Source of the DNA: Paraglomus brasilianum
Taxonomy: Eukaryota
Direction of reading: 5' to 3'
DNA: 39,646 bases
Assembly (NCBI GenBank): GCA_910592345.1
Contig: CAJVPI010000243.1
Span: forward strand, 1-39,646
Notes under the pieces: model-generated
The model's input: only the letters and a program-made list of their open reading frames with translations
The model's database searches: none
Told to the model about the DNA's origin: nothing
Position numbers and translations under genes: made by a program
In this document: one piece after another, positions 2,199 to 39,116 of the stretch
How positions within the stretch are numbered: position 1 is the stretch's first letter
How the letters are laid out: every line of letters starts with the position of its first letter

Positions 2199-2581
2199 TG
2201 GCTTTGTCGTGCCAGAGAGCAGTCAATTGTCAGTCCTAGGAATTTAGCTACTTTTGAGCGGAGAGTGGCGTCTCCTACTTATAGTTAAATAAAAATACAC
2301 AGTTAGTGACCTTTAAACTAGGCTTTTCTATTCACGACTCTCAAGTGTCAATGCATAAACACTAATCCTCGATAATAATCTGTCCTCGAGTATGCTACCG
2401 CTGGGATTAATTTTGATAGCCTGATCGGTTGGGGTACAAATGTGTTTACGACTATAACAGACGCGTTTAAATAAGAAGCAATTAGTATTAATTATCGTAT
2501 TTGCCACGGGAATAATCGCGGGGGACAAGAAGCGATTATGTACTTCAGAGTATAAAGAAATATTCGCTTATTAGAATATTT
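2199..2581 (+). ncRNA. Candidate structured ncRNA, copy A (unclassified)
   Basis: Collinear with 9443-9795, including the identical block acagttagtgacct. Helices: atttagcta/tagttaaat, ggaga/tctcc, aggct/agcct, taatcct/gggatta, gtgcc/ggtac, ataatcgc/gcgattat. G-U pairs favour the + strand. Confidence 0.6.
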
Positions 2582-2628
2582 ACAATAATAAAGGAATCGA
2601 AAAGATTAAAACGCTTCTAGTGCCAACT

Positions 2629-2852
2629 TTAAAGAAATTCTGGGAACTCCGCTTGACGGTTCTTTTTCTTATGTACTTCAGATTCGTCTATTGAGATCCA
2701 CTTCTCTCTGTTTGACAGAATTTCAGAAATACTGCTCTGACTTACGCAATATTCGTTAGCCAAATCTATTTGAGATGGCCGTGGCTTTTGGCATATCTTT
2801 TACATATCTCATGCTTCTGAGCAAAGGACGGCTTACGTTTTCGCTTGTTCAT
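2629..2852 (-). mobile_element. pogo/Tigger (CENP-B-like) transposase N-terminal HTH relic
   Basis: With one frameshift reads MNKRKRKPSFAQKHEICKRYA/KPRPSQIDLANEYCVSQSSISEILSNREKW...KKNRQAEFPE, matching the CENP-B N-terminal HTH pattern. Not in the ORF track. Confidence 0.8.
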
Positions 2853-2889
2853 TCTTGAAAATTTTATTATAGATGGATGTACGTATTAA

Positions 2890-3549
2890 TATAAAGTCAT
2901 TGTTTGACCAATGAAATTGCAAGAATCGGGTCACATTCTACTCCGGTAAAATTTTATTACAAGTGCGTCTCGATATAACGACACTGCTATATAACGACAT
3001 CTCGTTATACTGACAAAAATCCTGGAACAAAAAATCTATATAATGAAATTTATTCGATGTAACGACATTATATACAAATTTTCGTTATAACGGTATAACG
3101 ACATTTTTTAGGAAAGGCTTATTGGACAAATCTTAATAAAGTATCGGGATATACCGACATTTGATATAACGACAGTCGTTATACGCAATTTGAGTGACAC
3201 ACATCTCCTTTTTTGTTTATTAAGCTCCCATTTTAAGTTTTCATTAATATTAATACAATGCTTATCTCGTTCGTTTGCTTAAGCAATAAGAATTAATTCT
3301 TAATAACATTAACAAAGCAGAAAAGGTAAGCAGAAAATCTATCAAATTTGTCCAATAAAATTGATTTTTTTTTGTATAACGACAATTGGTTGAACTTGCT
3401 TTGTTGTCGTTATAGGACATTTTTGATATAACGACCATTTAGGTTGGAACCGAGCGTGTCGTTATATCGAGACGCACTTGTATAGAGTTATTGTTTAACC
3501 AATGAAATTGCAAGAATCTGGTCACGTTCTACTCCGATAATTTGTATTA
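2890..3549. repeat. Two ~70-bp direct repeat units (2890-2959, 3481-3549) separated by the MITE
   Basis: tataaagtcattgtttgaccaatgaaattgcaagaatcgggtcacattctactccgg vs tatagagttattgtttaaccaatgaaattgcaagaatctggtcacgttctactccga. Confidence 0.85.
2960..3480. mobile_element. Tc1/mariner-pogo-type MITE, 521 bp
   Basis: Perfect 25-bp TIRs caagtgcgtctcgatataacgacac (2960-2984 / 3456-3480); TA at both sides (2958-59, 3481-82); many internal (ga)tataacgaca motifs in both orientations; no ORF. Confidence 0.92.
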
Positions 3550-3559
3550 CTTTATAATA

Positions 3560-3714
3560 TCAAAATATCGGTTTATCGGGTTTGCGAGGTCTATATGTAA
3601 TATCGGTTTTACGAGGATTTTATTATATACACGTAAATTGCACGGGAATTGAAAAAAGTATCGGTTTTGCGAGTTATCGGTTTTGAGCAGTATCGGTTTT
3701 TCGAGGTTTGACTG
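3560..3714. mobile_element. Single end of a second pogo-type element
   Basis: Ends ...tcgaggtttgactg (reverse complement CAGTCAAACCTCGA, pogo/Tigger-style TIR), with about six tatcggttt subterminal motifs. Partner TIR not found. Confidence 0.6.
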
Positions 3715-4781
3715 CAGAAAAGGCGAAAACAGTGTTTCAAGCTTTGACTGCATTTCGCATGGGGTTGTGGGATTGTGTGAAGCGAATATTTTTTGGATCA
3801 AGTTTTATTGTAATGAAATCATTGCGCAGTAACATTTAGTATAGATCACGGGAATAAGGAATAAAACTTTCTCGTATATTACTATTAAAAAAGGGCGTCC
3901 GGATGATCTTTACACATGGATAGCATTGATATTTGTTATTAAATTAAAGACTGTTGATCAGATTTTCGTGATGCCCCCTAAAAAAGTAATGTCCCGGTTA
4001 GTGAACCTTTATCCGGCTCATGCAAGTAAAATAAAATTGAACTAATCAAATCAATATAACTTACCATTGTTCGCATCATAGATATTTAAAATCAAACGAA
4101 CACTCGTATATTCCGCAAAGTAATAATGAGGTAGGGTTGGTTTTATTATTCGGCTAGCTTCTTGAAACATGTCATCACGATGTTAATCGCCTATATAGAT
4201 GTTCCAAAATAAAACGGACATATTACTCTTCTATCTTCTTGTTATGTATCGGCATTTTGATCTTTGCCAAAAAAAAAAAAACAAACAAACCTTTGACAGT
4301 CATCACGCGTACAATAGACGTAGAATCACGATGCCGGACGAAACTTTTTTAATATGAGGCGGAGTGGAAGTTGTAAAATTAGTTGTAGTGGTAAGTGTAA
4401 ATCAGTAATTATTATTATTATTATTTTTACCTCGGTTGCTAATTCCGAACTTATTCTGCGGATTCGAAATCTTGGGGAATATCTTGGAGGTCTATTGTGG
4501 AGCTTAGCTGAAATCAAACTTTCTATATTATCCGTGTGGGTGGAAGTGATTTATATTGGCGAAAATTAGTAGATACTTCGTGTTTGTATGAGAATCTCGT
4601 AGTTAGCTATAGTGATAAATTGGCTTCAAAAATTTGATTTTATGATAGCATCATTTATTTCCATCGCTATATATACACTTTCCACACTATATCTAAAAAA
4701 TTAATAAACATGTTATTAGAAAAAATTTCTTGCAAAAAGTATTGGGGAAATGAACAGGTATAAACGGAAAAGCCAAAGAGT

Positions 4782-5175
4782 CACCGCCAAAGTGGCAGTC
4801 GTGAAGCTCTTTGGAGGATAGTAAACTCAGTTTGCCCACCGCCAAAGTGGCAGTCGTGAACACACCGGCCTTTTCAATTATGACAAACAAGATCGCCGCC
4901 AAAGTGGCAGTCGCAACCCGGCTTGAGCAAAGTCTACATCTCAGAGACTCGCCGCCAAAGTGGCAGTCGCGAAGTACACTGTCATTTTCCACCTTTCAGG
5001 TACCCGCCGCCAAAGTGGCAGTCGCAAAGTACACTGTCATTTTCACCCTTGGGTACTTCGCCGCCAAAGTGGCAGTCGCGAAGTACTTCTGTCATCAGGC
5101 ACCCGCCGCCAAAGTGGCAGTCACGAAGTACTCTGTCATTTTCACCTTTGGGTACCCGCCCAATGCAGTCAGGCA
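4782..5175 (+). repeat. CRISPR-like interspaced direct-repeat array: 7 repeats plus 1 degenerate repeat, 24-bp repeat, 21-33-bp spacers
   Basis: Repeat cRccgccaaagtggcagtcgYRaa at 4782, 4837, 4894, 4950, 5005, 5059, 5104 and degenerate at 5157; period mostly 53-57 bp; inner palindrome GCCA-aag-TGGC. No cas genes, so not typed as CRISPR. Confidence 0.9.
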
Positions 5176-5302
5176 TATTACCAAATTTGGTGTGGTCATG
5201 GAAATCAATTTCGAATATTCCATGAAATTTGATTGGCTCTATTACACAAAAACACTCTCTTCTATATACTATAGCAACACCAAACAAATTATTATTGTCG
5301 TT

Positions 5303-5593
5303 ATGCACTCACCTATCGAGCTCGTCGCAAAAGTTTATATAAGAGATAAACTGAGTTTACAAAAGTCATCAGGGAATACTCGCCCTATTCCTGTCAGTAC
5401 TAATGAAGAGCGTCATCAATCAACTGAATAGTCTTTGTCAATATCTGTAATTCAAGTTTTGATTAAATCTTTAAATGTGGGCACTAGGCCACAGCTTCAA
5501 AATTTACACAAGGAGGAGCTGTTGTTAATTTTGCAACAAGTTCAGGATTTTTACAAGGAAAATGACAGTAACGAAATAAAAGAGATATTGTAA
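5303..5593 (+). pseudogene. Short ORF relic interrupted by TAG (5429-31), with a possible SAP-like helical motif
   Basis: Reading through the stop: ...HQSTE*SLSISVIQVLIKSLNVGTRPQLQNLHKEELLLILQQVQDFY...; ATTGG and TATATA lie upstream. Confidence 0.3.
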
Positions 5594-5947
5594 GTTAACA
5601 ATCTCACAGTCTGAATATGAATAGTGTAATTGGTGTGGTGATCCCATATTAATATTACGGACGGTCAAATCACCTCAATATTTGAAAACTTGTTACACGA
5701 CACAGAAAGTACCTACGAAGCTGATTATACTTAGCTTAGAAACCGATACATGTTTTGTTCTATGGTTAACGATTATACGTTATACGAATAATCGATTCGC
5801 TTGATTTGATTGGTCTTGTTGATCGTTGTTTTGTATAGATTCTCGAACGTCGATCATACACTGTATTTAGACAATCCAAATTTGGTAATATAACCTGACT
5901 GCAATGTAGCGCGGTCGCGTTTTTCTTCGTCAAATCTACATAAGATA

Positions 5948-8122
5948 ATGTCAAATTCTGTCTTAGTTAACAAAACCTTAAATAACAGTTTTACTGATGA
6001 TCCCTGGTCGTATTACGTTGAGAACGATACAGAAAGTTCAACAGTTCATCCATACTTTCGTGCCGTACAAGCAAGATTCTGGATCTTTGAACATTATATT
6101 AACTGGATGTGTGATAACGTCGAGCTTCCTATTTGGCCCACCTGTGTATCTCAATTTTACGAGTCTTTAAGTATTATCAATAAAATCAAACATGCACCTC
6201 TTTGTGTTCGAGCGTATGTGAAAAGTATTCGGGAAACTATTAATGTAAGTACCAATATTTATTTGCTTGGCTTGTTTGGACAGAAGGCTCATGAAATTAT
6301 GAATTAGGAAGAGGAGAACCAGAATATAATGGAGAATCTTGAGTATAAATATCAAGCACTATTGAAGGAACAACAGAATACGAATTTTAGCAAGGTTTGT
6401 GATTGCTACTATTTACTGGTACTAATTAATGGAAAACTTACGCATATAGTTTGAAATCCAAAATAGAACCTGTTACATGCACAAACGAATAGTATGAGTT
6501 ATGATAGGGCCACAGGTGCTGTCAATTCCAAAAGACAGGCGAACAAGAAAGGAGAGCAGAAAAGGAGAAGAACAGATGACAGTGATTATGAGGAAGATAT
6601 CGAAGGGTCTGTTCTCTTTGATGAATCAAATGAGGACAATTTAATTGATTCTATAGATGGGCTGAAAGAAGAAGCAGTGTTGCCAATTTCGGGAACAATT
6701 GCTAATGTAAGTTTTTTGTTAAAGTCCAGACTTGATATTATATTCCCAGCATGCTGATTCAACCATGCTTAATAGACTTCAAAGCAGGAATTTTTACAAA
6801 GTATCTCCAAGAAATTCAATAAATATCAGGAAAAAATTCCTAAGACACGTTGAATAATAACGTAAGCCTTGTTATTGTGATTTCAACATGGTAAATTACT
6901 TGTTCTTAAATTTTGCTTGCTATTCAATAGATTAGGTTATTGGGGCATCTTTGATCTAACACAACAGAGTCTTTATGGATGCACAGATTTCTCTCAAAAT
7001 GAAATCAGTAAAATTACACAAGATTTTGCCAATCATGTTCATTGGTCTCCACAACAAACTCCAGATTACCTTCAACAATATTTTGATTCCAATTGTGATC
7101 CCACCAAACTTAAAGATAATGCAATGGTTGAAAGAATACACACAAATATACAATTTATGTAAGGTTTTACTTATCAGTATCTAGTATTTATGTGACTACT
7201 CTGATATCTAACGAGATTTTCTTTACCAGACTCTATAATATGTCTAAAAAAGGAGCTAAGACAGAAGAAGAACATAAATTTGTTACCATATATCCTTTAT
7301 TCAATGCTTTCATGGACCATTCATTAATAAAAGATACTTGGTATGTTCATTGTGGGGTTATTTATTATTTACTACAAAATACATAGTACTAAAAAGTTTG
7401 TTTATGTGCATATAGGGGAGAGACTCAGACACTTTGCTCAAATGCAAATCCTTTTGTCAAAGCTTGCATGGGGCGAAAAGTTGATATGAAAGGCACCCTG
7501 ATAAGGACATCCAATAAATTTGAAGCCTTGTGTGGAAAGGTTGCAAATGGGTTAAGTCCATTTGGAATATCACTTGCATCACAAAAGAAGAAATATTTAG
7601 ACAAAGTCAAACTTGCAGTATTAATGCGAGACTCGTTAAATAGTATTTTAAAGAAATGGAAATACTTAAATGATGAACAGAGAAAAAAGATTATTGTATA
7701 TGGTTGGACACTTGCAGGTGGGCAGATATTTTATGTAGTCCATTTGCCCGGACTCTACTATATAACTGATATATCTCATTCAATATAGGATTTGACTTAT
7801 CTCTATATGCAATGGATTGGACTGGAAATGGGATGTATCGCTTTGGATTGATAGAAAATTGTCATCTTCCATCAAACAAAGAGGATTGTGCTTTATTTGA
7901 AGGTGCCTTTTGCCTCTTGAAAGAATTGGAGGTATGTATATCTTGTTCTTGTCCTATAATTATAATCGTTAAATACTCAATTCATCTGGTTTTGTACAGA
8001 GGAAACTAACTGAGATGGAAAAGCTCATCCAAGAATTACATGCTGCAAATACACGTGGAAAGTGTAGAAAAGTAACTACTGAGAATAGCCCAACCCTAAA
8101 CCTTAATGGAACTCCGAATTGA
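5948..8122 (+). pseudogene. Multi-exon gene of an expanded fungal family with a putative PD-(D/E)xK-like nuclease fold; disrupted
   Basis: About 8-9 GT-AG exons. Motifs WGETQT, GRKVDMKG, FEALCGKV, DKVKLAVLMRDSL, VYGW, YAMDW..GMYRFG. In-frame TGA at 6851-53 and an apparent frameshift near 6492. Fold assignment is inference. Confidence 0.6.
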
Positions 8123-8180
8123 TTTACTTCCGTTCAACTGAAATCACAATCATAACAAAGTCATGAATTTTCAGACAACT

Positions 8181-8775
8181 TATCGTGCCATCGTTAACGT
8201 GACATTGTGTAAGAGTGCAACATACACAGTATAATGCCATGCGCCCTAATGGTGACAGCGCGGGAATACAAGCGCAGTGTGCAAATATCTATAGCGGGTT
8301 ACTCAAACTGCTTTAGGCTTTCGCGGATAACACATCAAACTAATAATGTCAACGAATATTTAATTCTATAATTAGTTCATTAATAGACGGTTAGTTATCT
8401 TGTGCATCCTTTATTAAGCACAACTAAGTTAGTGAATTGCACATTGTTTGGATATAGTTTTTTTGAGTCTAAAATTCCCTTCGAATACTTGTGCTATTAG
8501 TTTATCAGTGTAGTTAGCAATCGAGAATCTGCGAGATCAAACGTACGAACCGTGAGTATATAAATCCAATTTAAGGTCACAAGGGTAGTGTTACACTTAT
8601 TACAGTACTATTACTATTGTTGAATTATCGAATAAAGTAATATTTGCTATTTTATACACCTATACATAAGTAAACATATTACTCAACCAATGGTTAAATT
8701 GAATATATTGATTAATATTGCGAGACAATTCAGTTAGTAAACATTTGCAAAATGTGTTTGACGTAGGTCATCAGA
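8181..8775 (+). ncRNA. Candidate structured ncRNA, divergent and expanded copy C
   Basis: Same motif order as copies A and B: tatcgtgcc, gggaat, taggctttc, taattcta, agtct, attccc, gtacgaa, atattgcgagacaa. Helices tttaggctt/gagtctaaa, gggaat/attccc, tcgtgc/gtacga. Confidence 0.4.
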
Positions 8776-9442
8776 TAATAATAACATTAAATCATAAACA
8801 ATAAACAAAAAACCCTTTTATATCCTTTTTAGACGAACTCTTAATTCATATTCCATCGCGATAACCACCTTTCCTCATTCTTGCACTGAATGCCTTTGTA
8901 TCTCCGTCACAGCTAGCGGCTCCAGGAATTTAACATAGCCTCTTTGATTTTGTAATCATTTAGTGTTGTTGTATTTTACCGTTCTCCCTCTCTCACCCCA
9001 CGCCACCCGCCATAAGGAATGTCTCATAACTTCAATAGTATGAGCTACCATCGTCGTTGTCAACAAAATTCGCTTTTGAGAATAAATGAAATAAAAGACA
9101 ATGATCAGGGATAATTTCGTCGTATATACTGTATTAGCCTTACTCTTCGTAATCCTACTGCGATTATATTATTTACAGTAGTTCCGACCATATATAGTAA
9201 AACAACGGCATGAAGGCCTTCGACGTCAAAGTAAGCCCTCCTCCGTATGGCAGAAAGAAACTCGCCGCATCGTCAAAGTAAACTTTAAAATAAGAATAAA
9301 TCATTCGTCTAATTCATTTTGGTTGTTTTTAAACTGGAAGACAAGTTCAAACCTTTGTTTCGCTCAACCCTAGCTTTTTGTTGTCAGATTCGATTATAAA
9401 ATATCTCGATCAAATTTGAATACACATTGCAAAGACCATTAG

Positions 9443-9795
9443 TGGCCTGTGTCGTGCCGACTATCACGGGGAGCGGGATTTAGCTAGTATCGATGGAGCG
9501 TGGCGCCTCCAACTCTAGTCAAATTTCTGATTACAGTTAGTGACCTCGTTAATTCAAGGCTTTCCACTTACGAACTATTTCGTCGTAGAATGACGTTAAT
9601 CCTAGATATGTAATCGTACTTGTGGGATAAATTCAATAGTCTTCCGTCTGGGTACAAATAAAGGTAACGTGTTTCTAAAATAACGATTAAATATCTTAAC
9701 TCGCCACTCAGATAATTGCGGGACAAGAGGGCAATTATCCTTCGTTGATATACGAATTTAACAGTTTCTCAATTATACCAACTAATTTAGAGAAT
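9443..9795 (+). ncRNA. Candidate structured ncRNA, copy B (unclassified)
   Basis: Helices atttagctag/ctagtcaaat, ggag/ctcc, aggct/agtct, cgtcgt/atgacg, atccta/tgggat, gtgcc/ggtac, ataattgc/gcaattat. Loop gtggcg (9500-05) is complementary to cgccac (9702-07). Confidence 0.6.
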
Positions 9796-22369: not shown

Positions 22370-22619
22370 TAGAGTCGGCTCTCGATTATTTACGAAGAGT
22401 TATTTTTTGTTTAATGAATTTGGTCCCAAGGAATCATTATGTGTTGGCTTGTTTTATCTTTACGTGACACATTCGCCTCTTGTTGTCGTGTCGTATCGTG
22501 TAACGAATGAGATCAACCAACGCCACAAGACATCCTTAAGGTCATGTGGGTTTGTGGCGTTATAAATATGGATTATAATTAATAATACGTAAATTCTACT
22601 GCGCTTTGTTTTTCAAATA

Positions 22620-22788
22620 CAGTCAACCCTCTTTATAGTCACCCCCTCTATAAGCACATCATGTTTGATAACCAATTACTATTGAACTTATAGGAAAAAC
22701 CCTCTATATAGTCACAACCTCTTTATAAGCACATTTTCAACAAAAGTTGCATTGTTCCTGACAGCGTGACTATAAAGAGGGTTGACTG
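22620..22788. mobile_element. pogo/Tigger-type MITE, 169 bp
   Basis: Perfect 23-bp TIRs cagtcaaccctctttatagtcac (22620-42 / 22766-88), TA at both sides, internal duplicate of the left end near 22698-22735. Confidence 0.92.
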
Positions 22789-23558
22789 TATAACTAGCAA
22801 TCGTATGTTGCTAAATTTATGGCTTCTTTTTCGCTTCCTACCCGGGGCTTTACCTCTTGTATTGGTCTAATCCACCCTTTCTGTCAAGCTGCCATTGTAA
22901 CGAAAATGTTAGACTCTGTTGAGATTTGAAAATACATCTTTTGCGGCAGAAGCAAGTGAGCGAGTTTAATCCGAACTGCTTCGTGCTTATTATTTTACCT
23001 GTATTTCTAGATTATAGATATCGGAGTTAATAGAATAGAGCTGTTTCATTTACATGGTGTTTCCCTCAGACATGTTGTGTACGGTAAGTTAGTTTAGCAG
23101 TATTATTATAACATCAACAATAGTTTAACTTGTGTCCAAAAGGAACACAAAATACGACACTATTAAACTTCTGCCTCATCTCATTAAATATGGCGGACGG
23201 ACTGAAACAATGATAAACACGTTAGGACGATGCATCAAATATTATGCACAGAGCGGAACGTTTGCAGATGTATCATATTAATATCGTAACCCGCGCGGAT
23301 AATACATATGTAGTGACTTTTACCAGAATAAATTTATGGATATCCGTGTTTCCTATTTGCTTTTACCGATAGTCAACATTTGCAATAATGTTTCTAAAGT
23401 CATTTAGTTTGATTAGCGAAAGCTATATAAAAAATGTAGCGTTTATGCTGTTACTGACATCATTGATAACAGTGATGATAAGTGATGTACTTTAACAGCA
23501 ATTTTGACGCGAAACGTGTGTTAAACGTGTTAACTAAAGACATACATATCTTTCCCAC

Positions 23559-36670: not shown

Positions 36671-37020
36671 TTTTTTGTAAGATATCGAAGAAGAATATTG
36701 CGAGCACCATTAATATCTCTATCAAGGTTTGTTTTACATTGGGGACAGCAAAGACACCTTAGATCCACCAAGCTGTTTATATGACCGCAGGATCCACAAG
36801 TTTTACTTGTGTATTCTTCTGTACAAATTACTACTCGACACCAGGGATGCTCACGTGCCCTATGGATCAAATGCTGTTGAAGGCGATAATGTGACCATGT
36901 ACACATGGCTCAAGCAGTCTTGGAACCAATGCGTCGTTGTCCACGTCGGCCCATTCCTTGAGTGCGAAATTCGGGTAGTAATATCATGCGATAGTTTTCA
37001 CAAAGCCATTTAGCTAGTTT
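36658..37020 (-). pseudogene. Fanzor2 / IS607-type TnpB C-terminal relic
   Basis: KLAKWLCENYRMILLPEF...SKTA*AMCTWSHYR...VICTEEYTSKTCGSCG...CPQC..LDRDINGARNILLRYL; Zn finger plus RuvC-III; TGA at 36910-12; 5' truncated. Confidence 0.88.
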
Positions 37021-37314
37021 AGTATATGGGGCATACTGCAACAAAACCAGACAAAGTGAACATTTTATTATGCGGCATAAATGAGATGCTGATATGGCTA
37101 AAGGTTGATTAATTTGACTGATAGCATTTTGATTATCACAGCTGTAAGATTCATTATTATTATCATGTTTTAAATTAATATCATGCCAGAATGCGACTAA
37201 CATTAAATTTGGCCAGGATTAATGTAAAGTCAATAATAATAACTTGTTTAATATTAATATAGGATTATGTGTATACAAAAATATAATATAAAACTAATTT
37301 ACATCAAATCCACC

Positions 37315-38121: not shown

Positions 38122-38626
38122 TTTCAGAATAATAGTCCATATTAATATTGATGAAAATAAAAATGATAAATGTATCTGAATTACGTTACCTTTTAGTGGT
38201 TTCTGCATTTCATATTAATATTCAACCTCTTGGAGGAAAAAACCTGTAATTGCATTATCAAAACCAGCCCCAAGCCTCAGAGTATGAAATCCCTAGATGC
38301 ACATAATCATAATGTTCTAAGATCCAAGCAATGCGTTCTAAGTGTAAAATTTGTAAATTTCGTCGTATTAGCATTGTGCATTTAAGAACAGCCATGGGAA
38401 TCGAATAAATACTATTACTATTACCTCTTTCGATAAAAATTGACTAGGCTTATGTCATCATTTTGCATAAGGAGTTTAATAGCAATTGCGTAATCAACAC
38501 GTTAGCACTAATGTCAGTGGCATTGTCTACCTCGTTCTTTCAGCGCAATTACCCTTTTTGCAGATGATTTGCGTTGTAAACTTGCTACCCAATTTTTTTT
38601 TCGGCACTATTTTGTATCCCACAAAA

Positions 38627-39116
38627 ATGACCAAGCGTAACTATAGGCGAAACAAACCAGTTGCTTCCTCAAGCCGTCAAACGCCGACTACGGAACTTGT
38701 CTCTCTCTTCTGTCTCGTTGACGGCGAGTCTACAGAAAACGCGTTTGCAGTCAGAATAGATAAGAATAAATTTGTTAGTGACCTTCGCGAGAAAATATGG
38801 GAGAACCAACAAACTTTCAAGAACGTGGATGCAGCAGAACTCATTCTCTGGGCCGTCTCCATACCACAATGGGAAATGGCTCACCACAACTGAATTCAAT
38901 TCAGGAGACAAAAAAAAGCTGCTTCCTGGAGAGGAGATGCAAGAAGCATTTCCTGAACCTCTGCCAAAAAAATACGTCCATGTTATTGTGAAACCGCCTA
39001 CCATGTATGTAATCTTGACTGTACTTTCCATCCGTGCTTTTTGCTTACCTGCATCTGATTATCTATTTCTTCTTTTCAGTATCACTCCCTTTGAGGACCT
39101 CTCTCGATTTTTCTAG
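38627..39116 (+). pseudogene. Crinkler (CRN) effector N-terminal ubiquitin-like domain, frameshifted, no C-terminal domain
   Basis: VSLFCLVDGE..NAFAVRID..VSDLREKI..DAAELILWAVSIP, frameshift near 38865, then FPEPLPKKYVHVIVKPP; intron 39005-39079, then an early stop. Confidence 0.85.

Follow-up and report, generated by a model that had tools for sequence, protein, structure and literature searches.

A CRISPR-like repeat array in the fungus Paraglomus brasilianum is probably a structured RNA tied to a mobile gene with a predicted restriction-endonuclease fold

Introduction

What is an array of short palindromic repeats, separated by spacers of similar length, doing in the genome of a fungus? The array in question lies in a 39,646-nucleotide stretch of Paraglomus brasilianum DNA (contig CAJVPI010000243.1; hereafter the window). 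The original prediction described it as CRISPR-like, with the subterminal repeats of a DNA transposon as the main alternative, and expected a protein-binding or processing site about every 55 nt under either reading. Here, we describe the units of the array, the RNA fold predicted for them, and the gene that lies beside them. The locus is very probably a structured minus-strand RNA array tied to a mobile gene for a protein with a restriction-endonuclease (REase) fold, and not CRISPR. The array is real and belongs to a constrained, apparently undescribed element; our literature searches, which included few subscription papers, returned no description of such an element and no nuclease-paired repeat-array RNA in a fungus. 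The features discussed below are collected in Table 1.

Table 1. Features of the array, its likely RNA, the neighboring gene, and the transposon-like sequences around them (positions in the window)
Feature	Position	Strand	Basis or remark
Hairpin-unit array, seven units plus four bases of an eighth	4782..5160	-	Core count, spacer comparison, folding
Starts of the 24-nt repeats	4782, 4837, 4894, 4950, 5005, 5059, 5104		
Starts of the 17-nt core	4784, 4839, 4896, 4952, 5007, 5061, 5106		Exact 17-nt matches
Young, tandemly duplicated units 4-7	4950..5160	-	Likely 5′ end of RNA; copy number varies
Likely spliced non-coding RNA	4300..5149	-	Span covered by two probable RNA runs; longest ATG-started ORF 37 codons
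Inferred 87-nt GT-AG intron	4344..4430	-	Sole canonical placement of the gap in X19
Probable second intron	4525..4644	-	Skipped by two X20 contigs; splice signals not intact in the window
CACTA-starting block, conserved in L063	4685..4701	+	Possible relic left end of a TIR transposon
Imperfect inverted partner of the CACTA block	8443..8459	-	14/17 positions; terminal G missing
Separate TIR element, TIRs of about 26 nt	5166..5901	.	CAATG direct repeat on both sides; between array and gene
Nine-exon gene, 538 codons, predicted PD-(D/E)xK fold	5948..8122	+	Homology, introns, structure model

Results

Seven units with inherited spacers

The 17-nt core of the repeat occurs exactly seven times in the window, always on one strand between 4784 and 5122, against 0.05 copies expected from shuffled sequence (0 of 100 shuffles reach seven), which bears out the near-invariant core first described. 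With a 24-nt repeat assumed, spacers 1-6 are 31, 33, 32, 31, 30, and 21 nt long, and spacer 7, which ends at the partial repeat at 5157, is 29 nt, the same lengths as originally given; the units, with one spacer each, measure 45-57 nt. Spacers 4-7 form a single family (P ≤ 0.0095 in all six pairwise comparisons), as had been proposed. For the weaker likenesses proposed alongside, similarity among spacers 1-3 and of spacer 2 to spacers 4 and 5 is not significant (P 0.06-0.75; spacer 2 against spacer 4, P = 0.14, and against spacer 5, P = 0.064; spacer 1 against spacer 3, P = 0.067). Tandem Repeats Finder reports the array at units 4-7 only. What had been taken for a degenerate last repeat (5157-5175) combines four repeat bases with a 5-bp direct repeat and the opening bases of a terminal inverted repeat (TIR), and the hairpins noted at 5180-5225 belong to the separate TIR element rather than to the array. 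A search of the whole window with a covariance model (R1) found the seven units and no further hairpin copy. We discarded the idea that the array encodes protein: its units have lengths that are not divisible by three, 1-nt indels occur in homologs, and no ATG-started ORF on the minus strand is longer than 37-39 codons.

A loose-pattern scan of metagenomes gave at least 120 stretches, and two of the 120 listed (L063 and L108) carry the array; because these two are identical where they overlap, they are counted as one sequence. L063, from a soil metagenome, has five units, with spacers 1-4 the same and in the same order as in the window. Its left flank is homologous to that of the window for at least 330 nt beyond the CACTA block, and is followed by the array and, about 200 nt on, by the same gene. 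The array differs between the two at 15 of 269 positions and is more conserved than both the upstream flank, a gappy alignment with 59 of 379 positions differing (Fisher P = 5e-5), and the start of the gene, where 49 of 449 differ (Fisher P = 0.015). The original contrast between a strongly conserved core and far less conserved spacers holds from unit to unit but fails from one homologous locus to another, where 5 of 120 repeat positions differ, against the 15 of 269 just given for the whole array.

In Funneliformis caledonium, translated units 3-5 form the start of the protein model P0004 (tblastn E 6e-9). Its first 38 residues match the array reading frame at 26 of 38 positions without gaps, spacers 3-4 are recognizable, and the same gene family follows in the same orientation. 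Runs X7 and X21 carry diverged copies of the array, and linkage of the array to this one gene family is seen in three lineages. From the comparisons with L063, P0004, and the runs, we infer that the spacers are inherited and that new units join the array through duplication at the right end; spacer content shows no turnover between the window and L063. The number of units is polymorphic, with five in L063, seven in the window, and probably more in runs X19 and X20, whose contigs show a joint at 5142 that goes back 153 and a loose end at 5149. As for the public gene model of P0004, its residues 1-50 take the non-coding array as exons, likely an annotation error. A translation of the array was found in 1 of 157 family proteins, a test that detects mis-predicted exons only, and a protein search with the array's translation gave no matches.

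The tandem repeat pattern had 0 matches in 185,579 prokaryote genomes and none in viral contigs, where a single core match (L001) is a lone copy consistent with chance. Likewise, the covariance model found no further units in 100 of 121 loci, beyond L063 and L001. Searches of the spacers against phages and plasmids gave nothing below E = 1, and the best matches to the spacers elsewhere in the window cover 18-20 of 31-33 positions. Four AT-rich metagenome contigs (L035, L037, L058, and L082) carry paired short palindromes 62 nt apart that share an inner 11-mer; their flanks are unrelated, and they are probably bacterial REP-like repeats.

Predicted fold of the units

Each unit is predicted to fold into one minus-strand hairpin (12 of 12 units, 7 in the window and 5 in L063), consisting of a lower stem, a 3-nt GAC bulge, a 5-bp upper stem, and a CUU loop, with bulge and loop invariant among units. 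The lower stems reach into the flanking spacers, where the mean pairing probability is 0.48-0.72, and the predicted stems run to about 15-20 bp. In this form, the site proposed at a spacing of ~55 nt survives as a repeated unit, recast as a predicted minus-strand RNA hairpin.

The minus-strand consensus comprises 10 pairs, three of which are changed on both sides, with two-sided changes located at repeat positions 2/21 and 3/20. On this strand, 98.2% of 110 cells are paired, and none of 500 shuffles reaches that percentage or the covariation score. The count of three two-sided pairs is matched by 28 of 500 shuffles and, because the units are related and kinship inflates such counts, represents only about three events. 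When the same pairs are read on the plus strand, 71.8% of cells are paired, and the best plus-strand consensus has 6 pairs and zero two-sided changes. At the ten pairs, every one-sided change gives a G-U on the minus strand, and none does so on the plus strand. The minus strand also folds to the lower value in 10 of 12 units.

Substitutions and the folding of the array as a whole were considered as well. Fourteen of the 16 substitutions between the window and L063 sit at paired positions, which counts against the hairpin reading. The ortholog stem test on the L063 structure is not significant for the minus strand (9 pairs kept and 3 broken, versus a null mean of 4.4; P = 0.23), and the plus strand does worse (3 kept, 10 broken). 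The seven substitutions in X19 and X20 comprise three at unpaired positions, three that retain the minus-strand pair, and one that breaks it, while in the diverged array of run X7 pairing is lost at 4 of 5 paired positions. Folding z-scores for the whole array are better on the plus strand in the window (-3.0, versus -1.6 for minus) and similar in L063 (plus -3.2, minus -3.5). In the whole-array ensemble, the young units cross-pair, and the lower pair of units 4, 5, and 7 has a probability of 0.02-0.04. No Rfam family was matched at gathering level. A hairpin ribozyme or a K-turn gave no fit by eye.

Signs of a spliced, divergent RNA

Contigs from two probable RNA runs of one study, X19 and X20, jointly cover 4436-5149 and suggest that the minus strand is transcribed and spliced. 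Neither run has a record as RNA, both are guessed to be RNA runs, and their assembled contigs cannot show ends or levels; X20 was marked as RNA because one of its joints, with GT..AG ends, coincides with the last intron of the neighboring gene. In record 1 of X19, positions 102-147 map to 4300-4345 and positions 151-253 to 4436-4538, which leaves the 87-nt gap assigned to the first intron in Table 1. A canonical placement of this kind is possible in 8 of 900 background gaps; the intron itself is derived from coordinates, as its joint is not listed by the mapping and a masked repeat lies there. At the place homologous to the probable second intron, L063 has a canonical 192-nt minus-strand intron.

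The AT-rich stretch to the left of the array had been read as a sign of CRISPR-like polarity. It holds introns of the 3′ part of the likely minus-strand RNA and no leader, and the polarity is reversed: the likely 5′ end of this RNA is where the young units lie. Contig cover, introns, and short ORFs together argue for a likely spliced, non-coding RNA that is divergent from the gene, in a head-to-head arrangement with the array RNA on the minus strand and the gene on the plus strand. The X19 and X20 contigs have zero cover at 5348-5609 and 6003-7705, which proves nothing alone. On the minus strand, the stretch 4685-4727 around the CACTA block can also be taken for a branch point with a pyrimidine tract and an AG, and may be a third splice acceptor; no splice joint is present there among the X19 and X20 contigs.

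The neighboring gene and its protein

The gene that faces the array is interrupted by eight GT-AG introns of about 63-75 nt. The window copy is likely a pseudogene, since it has one premature stop at codon 234 (6851-6853), a codon at which a soil contig differs. At E ≤ 0.001, its family comprises 296 representatives. The protein went unnamed in sequence searches of Pfam, PADLOC, and PDB, the Atlas returned unnamed Mucoromycota clusters only, and a pattern search plus tblastn found no relative in prokaryote genomes or viral contigs. The REase-fold family may already be named in the family tables of Zhang et al. 2016.

A relative, P0003 (69% identical to the window protein), was modeled with a pLDDT of 87.8, and the model contains the alpha-beta-beta-beta-alpha-beta core of the PD-(D/E)xK superfamily. 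Foldseek gave no match to this model at E ≤ 0.001. In a wide structural search, the top two rows were mitoribosome chains (Z 11.1 and 11.0, rmsd 6.8 and 5.3), which we take to be mL37 and mL65, followed mostly by proteins of the restriction-endonuclease fold; BpuSI aligned with Z 9.2 and rmsd 3.3 over 153 residues, and DrdV with Z 8.8 and rmsd 3.0 over 138. Across relatives, the residues E, E, D, E, K, and D are conserved without a canonical ExK (column counts D 59/62, E 58/65, E 44/66, K 63/64, and D 64/64), and at the column where 44 of 66 relatives have glutamate, the window copy carries a lysine. The protein is thus predicted to have a restriction-endonuclease fold, and nuclease activity is likewise a prediction. 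In PMC8998825, mL37 and mL65 are called repurposed endonucleases that bind rRNA, and therefore an REase fold can bind structured RNA. These chains are the best structural rows, yet identity to them is 5-7% at rmsd 5-7, and a shared fold shows no function; unlike mL37 and mL65, the fungal family keeps acidic catalytic-type residues.

Three further coding remnants were noted in the window. A degenerate multi-exon gene at 400-1900 on the plus strand, with no Pfam match, presumably resembles the Uma2-like REase genes of these fungi. On the same strand, 38483-38890 encodes a Crinkler N-terminal domain (E 8e-16). A minus-strand fragment at 36913-37218, also with no Pfam match, resembles TnpB/Fanzor, and its Atlas neighbors carry OrfB_IS605 (scores 0.85-0.89), which we regard as a lead only.

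Likely mobility and insertions

The Trp1 protein of the window is closest to those of arbuscular mycorrhizal fungi (63-69% identity), as the deepest branch among those sampled, in agreement with the fungal origin assumed at the outset. The product of the gene beside the array shares 84.5% identity with P0001 of F. geosporum (91.7% in the C-terminal part) and 40-47% with two relatives from Paraglomus occultum, while Trp1 of the window and of F. geosporum are 67.1% identical. The family tree has four close cross-genus pairs at 0.05-0.13 substitutions per site, and the path from the window to F. geosporum in the Trp1 tree is about 0.72; trees were built with FastTree, without a formal topology test. 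Horizontal transfer is the simplest reading of these sequence comparisons, and array and gene likely form a unit that moves horizontally among mycorrhizal fungi, a pattern that cross-contaminated assemblies could mimic. Near-identical family members from different genera are P0002/P0281, P0006/P0008, and P0004/P0005.

The CACTA motif noted at 4685 is present. The inverted partner of its block is the single one at 14/17 in 79,292 window positions, 320 nt behind the gene, and 27 of 2000 shuffles of the region reach such a partner. The flanks of the unit bounded by the two (4685-8459) differ, so that there is no target-site duplication, and no transposase was found within it. The array is one-sided, with no copy at the right end (8443-8459), and an inverted array that would mark the other end of a transposon was not found in the window. 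In run X1, the probable source run, a single contig covers 4372-5073, a weak observation because identical copies collapse. At 8046-8817, a second X1 contig shares 8296-8332 and the sequence from 8534 onward and differs between them (joint 8332-8534); this contig behind the gene is a paralog or a second haplotype.

The TIR element between array and gene is an insertion, as it is absent from L063 and its ends occur with other flanks in four runs. In the 200-nt gap between array and gene, L063 has a small inverted-repeat element of its own, and an X20 contig joins the interior of the window's TIR element (5684-5877) to a similar sequence. Other TIR elements in the window (2958-3482, 22617-22791, and 3560-3717) include perfect 27-nt and 26-nt inverted repeats plus a subterminal-repeat end, and those within 2500-9500 have many copies with other flanks. 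According to PMC11952901, unknown TEs make up 18-45% of these fungal genomes under automated annotation.

Discussion

A possible RNA antidote

The reading that we favor, tentatively and with somewhat less than even confidence, is that the hairpin RNA is a protein-binding antidote restraining the neighboring nuclease. An RNA antidote or decoy was chosen because a mobile predicted nuclease needs restraint, and the nuclease was chosen as the partner because its protein stays beside the array across genera, which makes it the most economical candidate. Here, the array would be the business end of the spliced minus-strand non-coding RNA, and each of the seven predicted hairpins would bind one copy of the predicted nuclease encoded head to head with it, holding it inactive; together, RNA and gene would make up a mobile unit that protects itself. 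Protein recognition would fall to the surface of the invariant bulge and loop, the "spacers" would have no task beyond stem closure, and the number of sites would be tuned as units duplicate in tandem at the 5′ end of the RNA. Multi-site protein-binding RNAs are built in this way, from a repeated and expandable unit whose bulge and loop are invariant and whose stems vary. CsrB-type sponges and the Xist A-repeat likewise repeat a short hairpin core 7-8 times with variable linkers in a non-coding RNA; they have no sequence or Rfam relation to the array, which differs in its linkage to a mobile gene for a predicted nuclease. Two features of the window copy count against an antidote, namely the array that is intact despite the stopped gene and the lysine in place of a conserved glutamate.

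This mode of action would be like that of bacterial toxin-antitoxin systems of type III, without membership in them. In these systems, as described in PMC3401426, repeat-array RNA antitoxins with repeats of 31-62 nt adjoin nuclease toxins. The locus resembles toxIN, cptIN, and tenpIN in its tandem structured RNA repeats (predicted here) beside a nuclease gene (also predicted), and its units of 45-57 nt fall within the same range. In contrast, type III systems lie on one strand with a terminator, their 1.9-5.6 units form pseudoknots, and their toxin is a ToxN, CptN, or TenpN endoribonuclease of 45-288 aa, whereas the locus described here is eukaryotic, has a likely divergent and spliced RNA with 5-8 bulged hairpins, and carries on the plus strand a gene for a 538-aa protein with a predicted REase fold and no PADLOC match.

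Alternative readings

A doubtful but serious competitor holds that the array is a subterminal site, in single-stranded DNA or RNA, for the machinery that moves the 3.8-kb CACTA-like unit or a larger element, with the REase-fold protein as mobilization factor or cargo and the RNA as outward read-through. Like CACTA transposons (CMC/EnSpm), the locus has CACTA followed by repeated motifs within 100 nt and a weak inverted partner 3.8 kb off. The transposon alternative of the original prediction keeps this much of its force, together with an array that travels with a likely transferred gene of a family that looks mobile; CRN-type REase domains are tied to transposons in the review PMC5289972, and G-T tolerance would favor one DNA strand too. 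It loses force from the absence of a target-site duplication, of the terminal G at the right end, of a transposase in the unit, and of any further hairpin copy in the window, the right end included. Strand-specific hairpin covariation also sets the locus apart from CACTA elements, homology with L063 passes the CACTA block, and the inferred introns, recognizable in L063, extend over the block and past it; the single X1 contig over the left end adds weakly to these points. It is unlikely that the RNA instead faces the host, as a sponge for a host RNA-binding protein or as a Dicer-cut multi-hairpin precursor, with the nuclease gene merely carried along. The array does remain intact with probable RNA cover while the window gene decays, and the predicted stem lengths are in its favor, but an invariant bulge and apical loop on varying stems is the reverse of the miRNA-precursor pattern, no Rfam family was matched, and the linkage to one gene subfamily across genera speaks against a passenger. 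A further point in favor of this reading is that, according to PMC7082362, the RNAi sets of these fungi are complete, and 24-25-nt small RNAs as well as miRNA-like loci occur in them.

Other readings dispense with the RNA or give it a different task. That the array is a set of double-stranded DNA sites in a promoter, or a neutral minisatellite in which slippage amplified a palindrome and the hairpin is a by-product, seems to us quite unlikely. Such a reading can draw on units 4-7 as plain tandem duplicates, on the position just upstream of the gene, on the non-significant ortholog stem test, and on window z-scores that do not favor the minus strand. The core also contains TTTGGCGG, which we take to be E2F-like. 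However, repeat 2 of L063 alters this octamer, the array is more conserved than the coding start, and the two-sided changes and the confinement of one-sided G-U changes to the minus strand also count against it. A guide-RNA array is very improbable; in it, the units would be cut to monomers, the hairpin would serve the REase-fold protein as a handle, and the linker would pick the target, as in TIGR or OMEGA. The regular ~55-nt units, invariant handle, adjoining predicted nuclease, likely mobile DNA, and new units at the likely 5′ end would all suit a guide, and TIGR-Tas, as described in PMC12045711, is likewise an array of repeated RNA units, some of them stem-loops, beside a protein that acts on nucleic acids. 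Its protein, however, has a Nop domain, which Pfam scans including 66 relatives did not find here, where an REase fold takes its place, and its guides are 36-nt and dual-spacer rather than units of ~55 nt with one fixed spacer. The spacers are fixed across lineages, they are substantially paired in the predicted fold, and the searches in phages, plasmids, and the window gave them no target. We give almost no credence to a true CRISPR array, whether of the fungus or of an endobacterium. The short palindromic 24-nt repeat and the 21-33-nt spacers are in the usual range, and here the likeness proposed originally ends: spacers 4-7 are one family instead of unique sequences, spacers 1-4 are shared with L063 and 3-4 recur in P0004 instead of turning over at a leader end, most spacer bases are predicted to pair into stems, the spacers gave no match below E = 1 in phages or plasmids, and growth is by tandem duplication. 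The prokaryote and viral searches found no tandem match, Rfam gave none, and PADLOC matched none of the 54 window ORFs with at least 90 aa, in line with the absence of cas genes recorded at the outset.

Possible drive between nuclei

If the hairpin RNA is an antidote, the locus could go one step further and be a eukaryotic module of protein toxin and RNA antidote on horizontally moving DNA that drives between nuclei, an extension we consider rather unlikely. In these multinucleate fungi, with their shared cytoplasm, the nuclease would reach all nuclei, whereas protection by the hairpin RNA would be largely confined to the nucleus of its origin, and copies with a dead nuclease and an intact array, such as that of the window, would be resistant alleles. 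Spok genes, according to PMC12693581, are fungal nuclease toxin-antidote modules with a protein antidote. CR/Crinkler REase proteins and Spok genes (PMC5289972 and PMC12693581) share with the locus the transposon-linked REase-fold domains and the setting of fungal genetic conflict, but their header, NTPase, or kinase domain was not found here in Pfam scans, and Spok resistance resides in the kinase domain of the same protein and not in an RNA.

Significance

Repeat-array RNAs paired with nucleases are known from bacteria, in CRISPR, TIGR, and type III antitoxins. The locus described here is a concrete fungal candidate, with a structured, likely spliced RNA that is absent from Rfam and, in more than one genus, is linked to a family of about 300 REase-fold clusters. 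Should the RNA restrain the nuclease, the locus would offer a testable route by which selfish DNA persists and nuclei compete within the cytoplasm that arbuscular mycorrhizal fungi share among many nuclei, and a new RNA-controlled nuclease. Under the rival readings too, it would be an undescribed structured element and would point to repeated gene transfer between distant mycorrhizal lineages.
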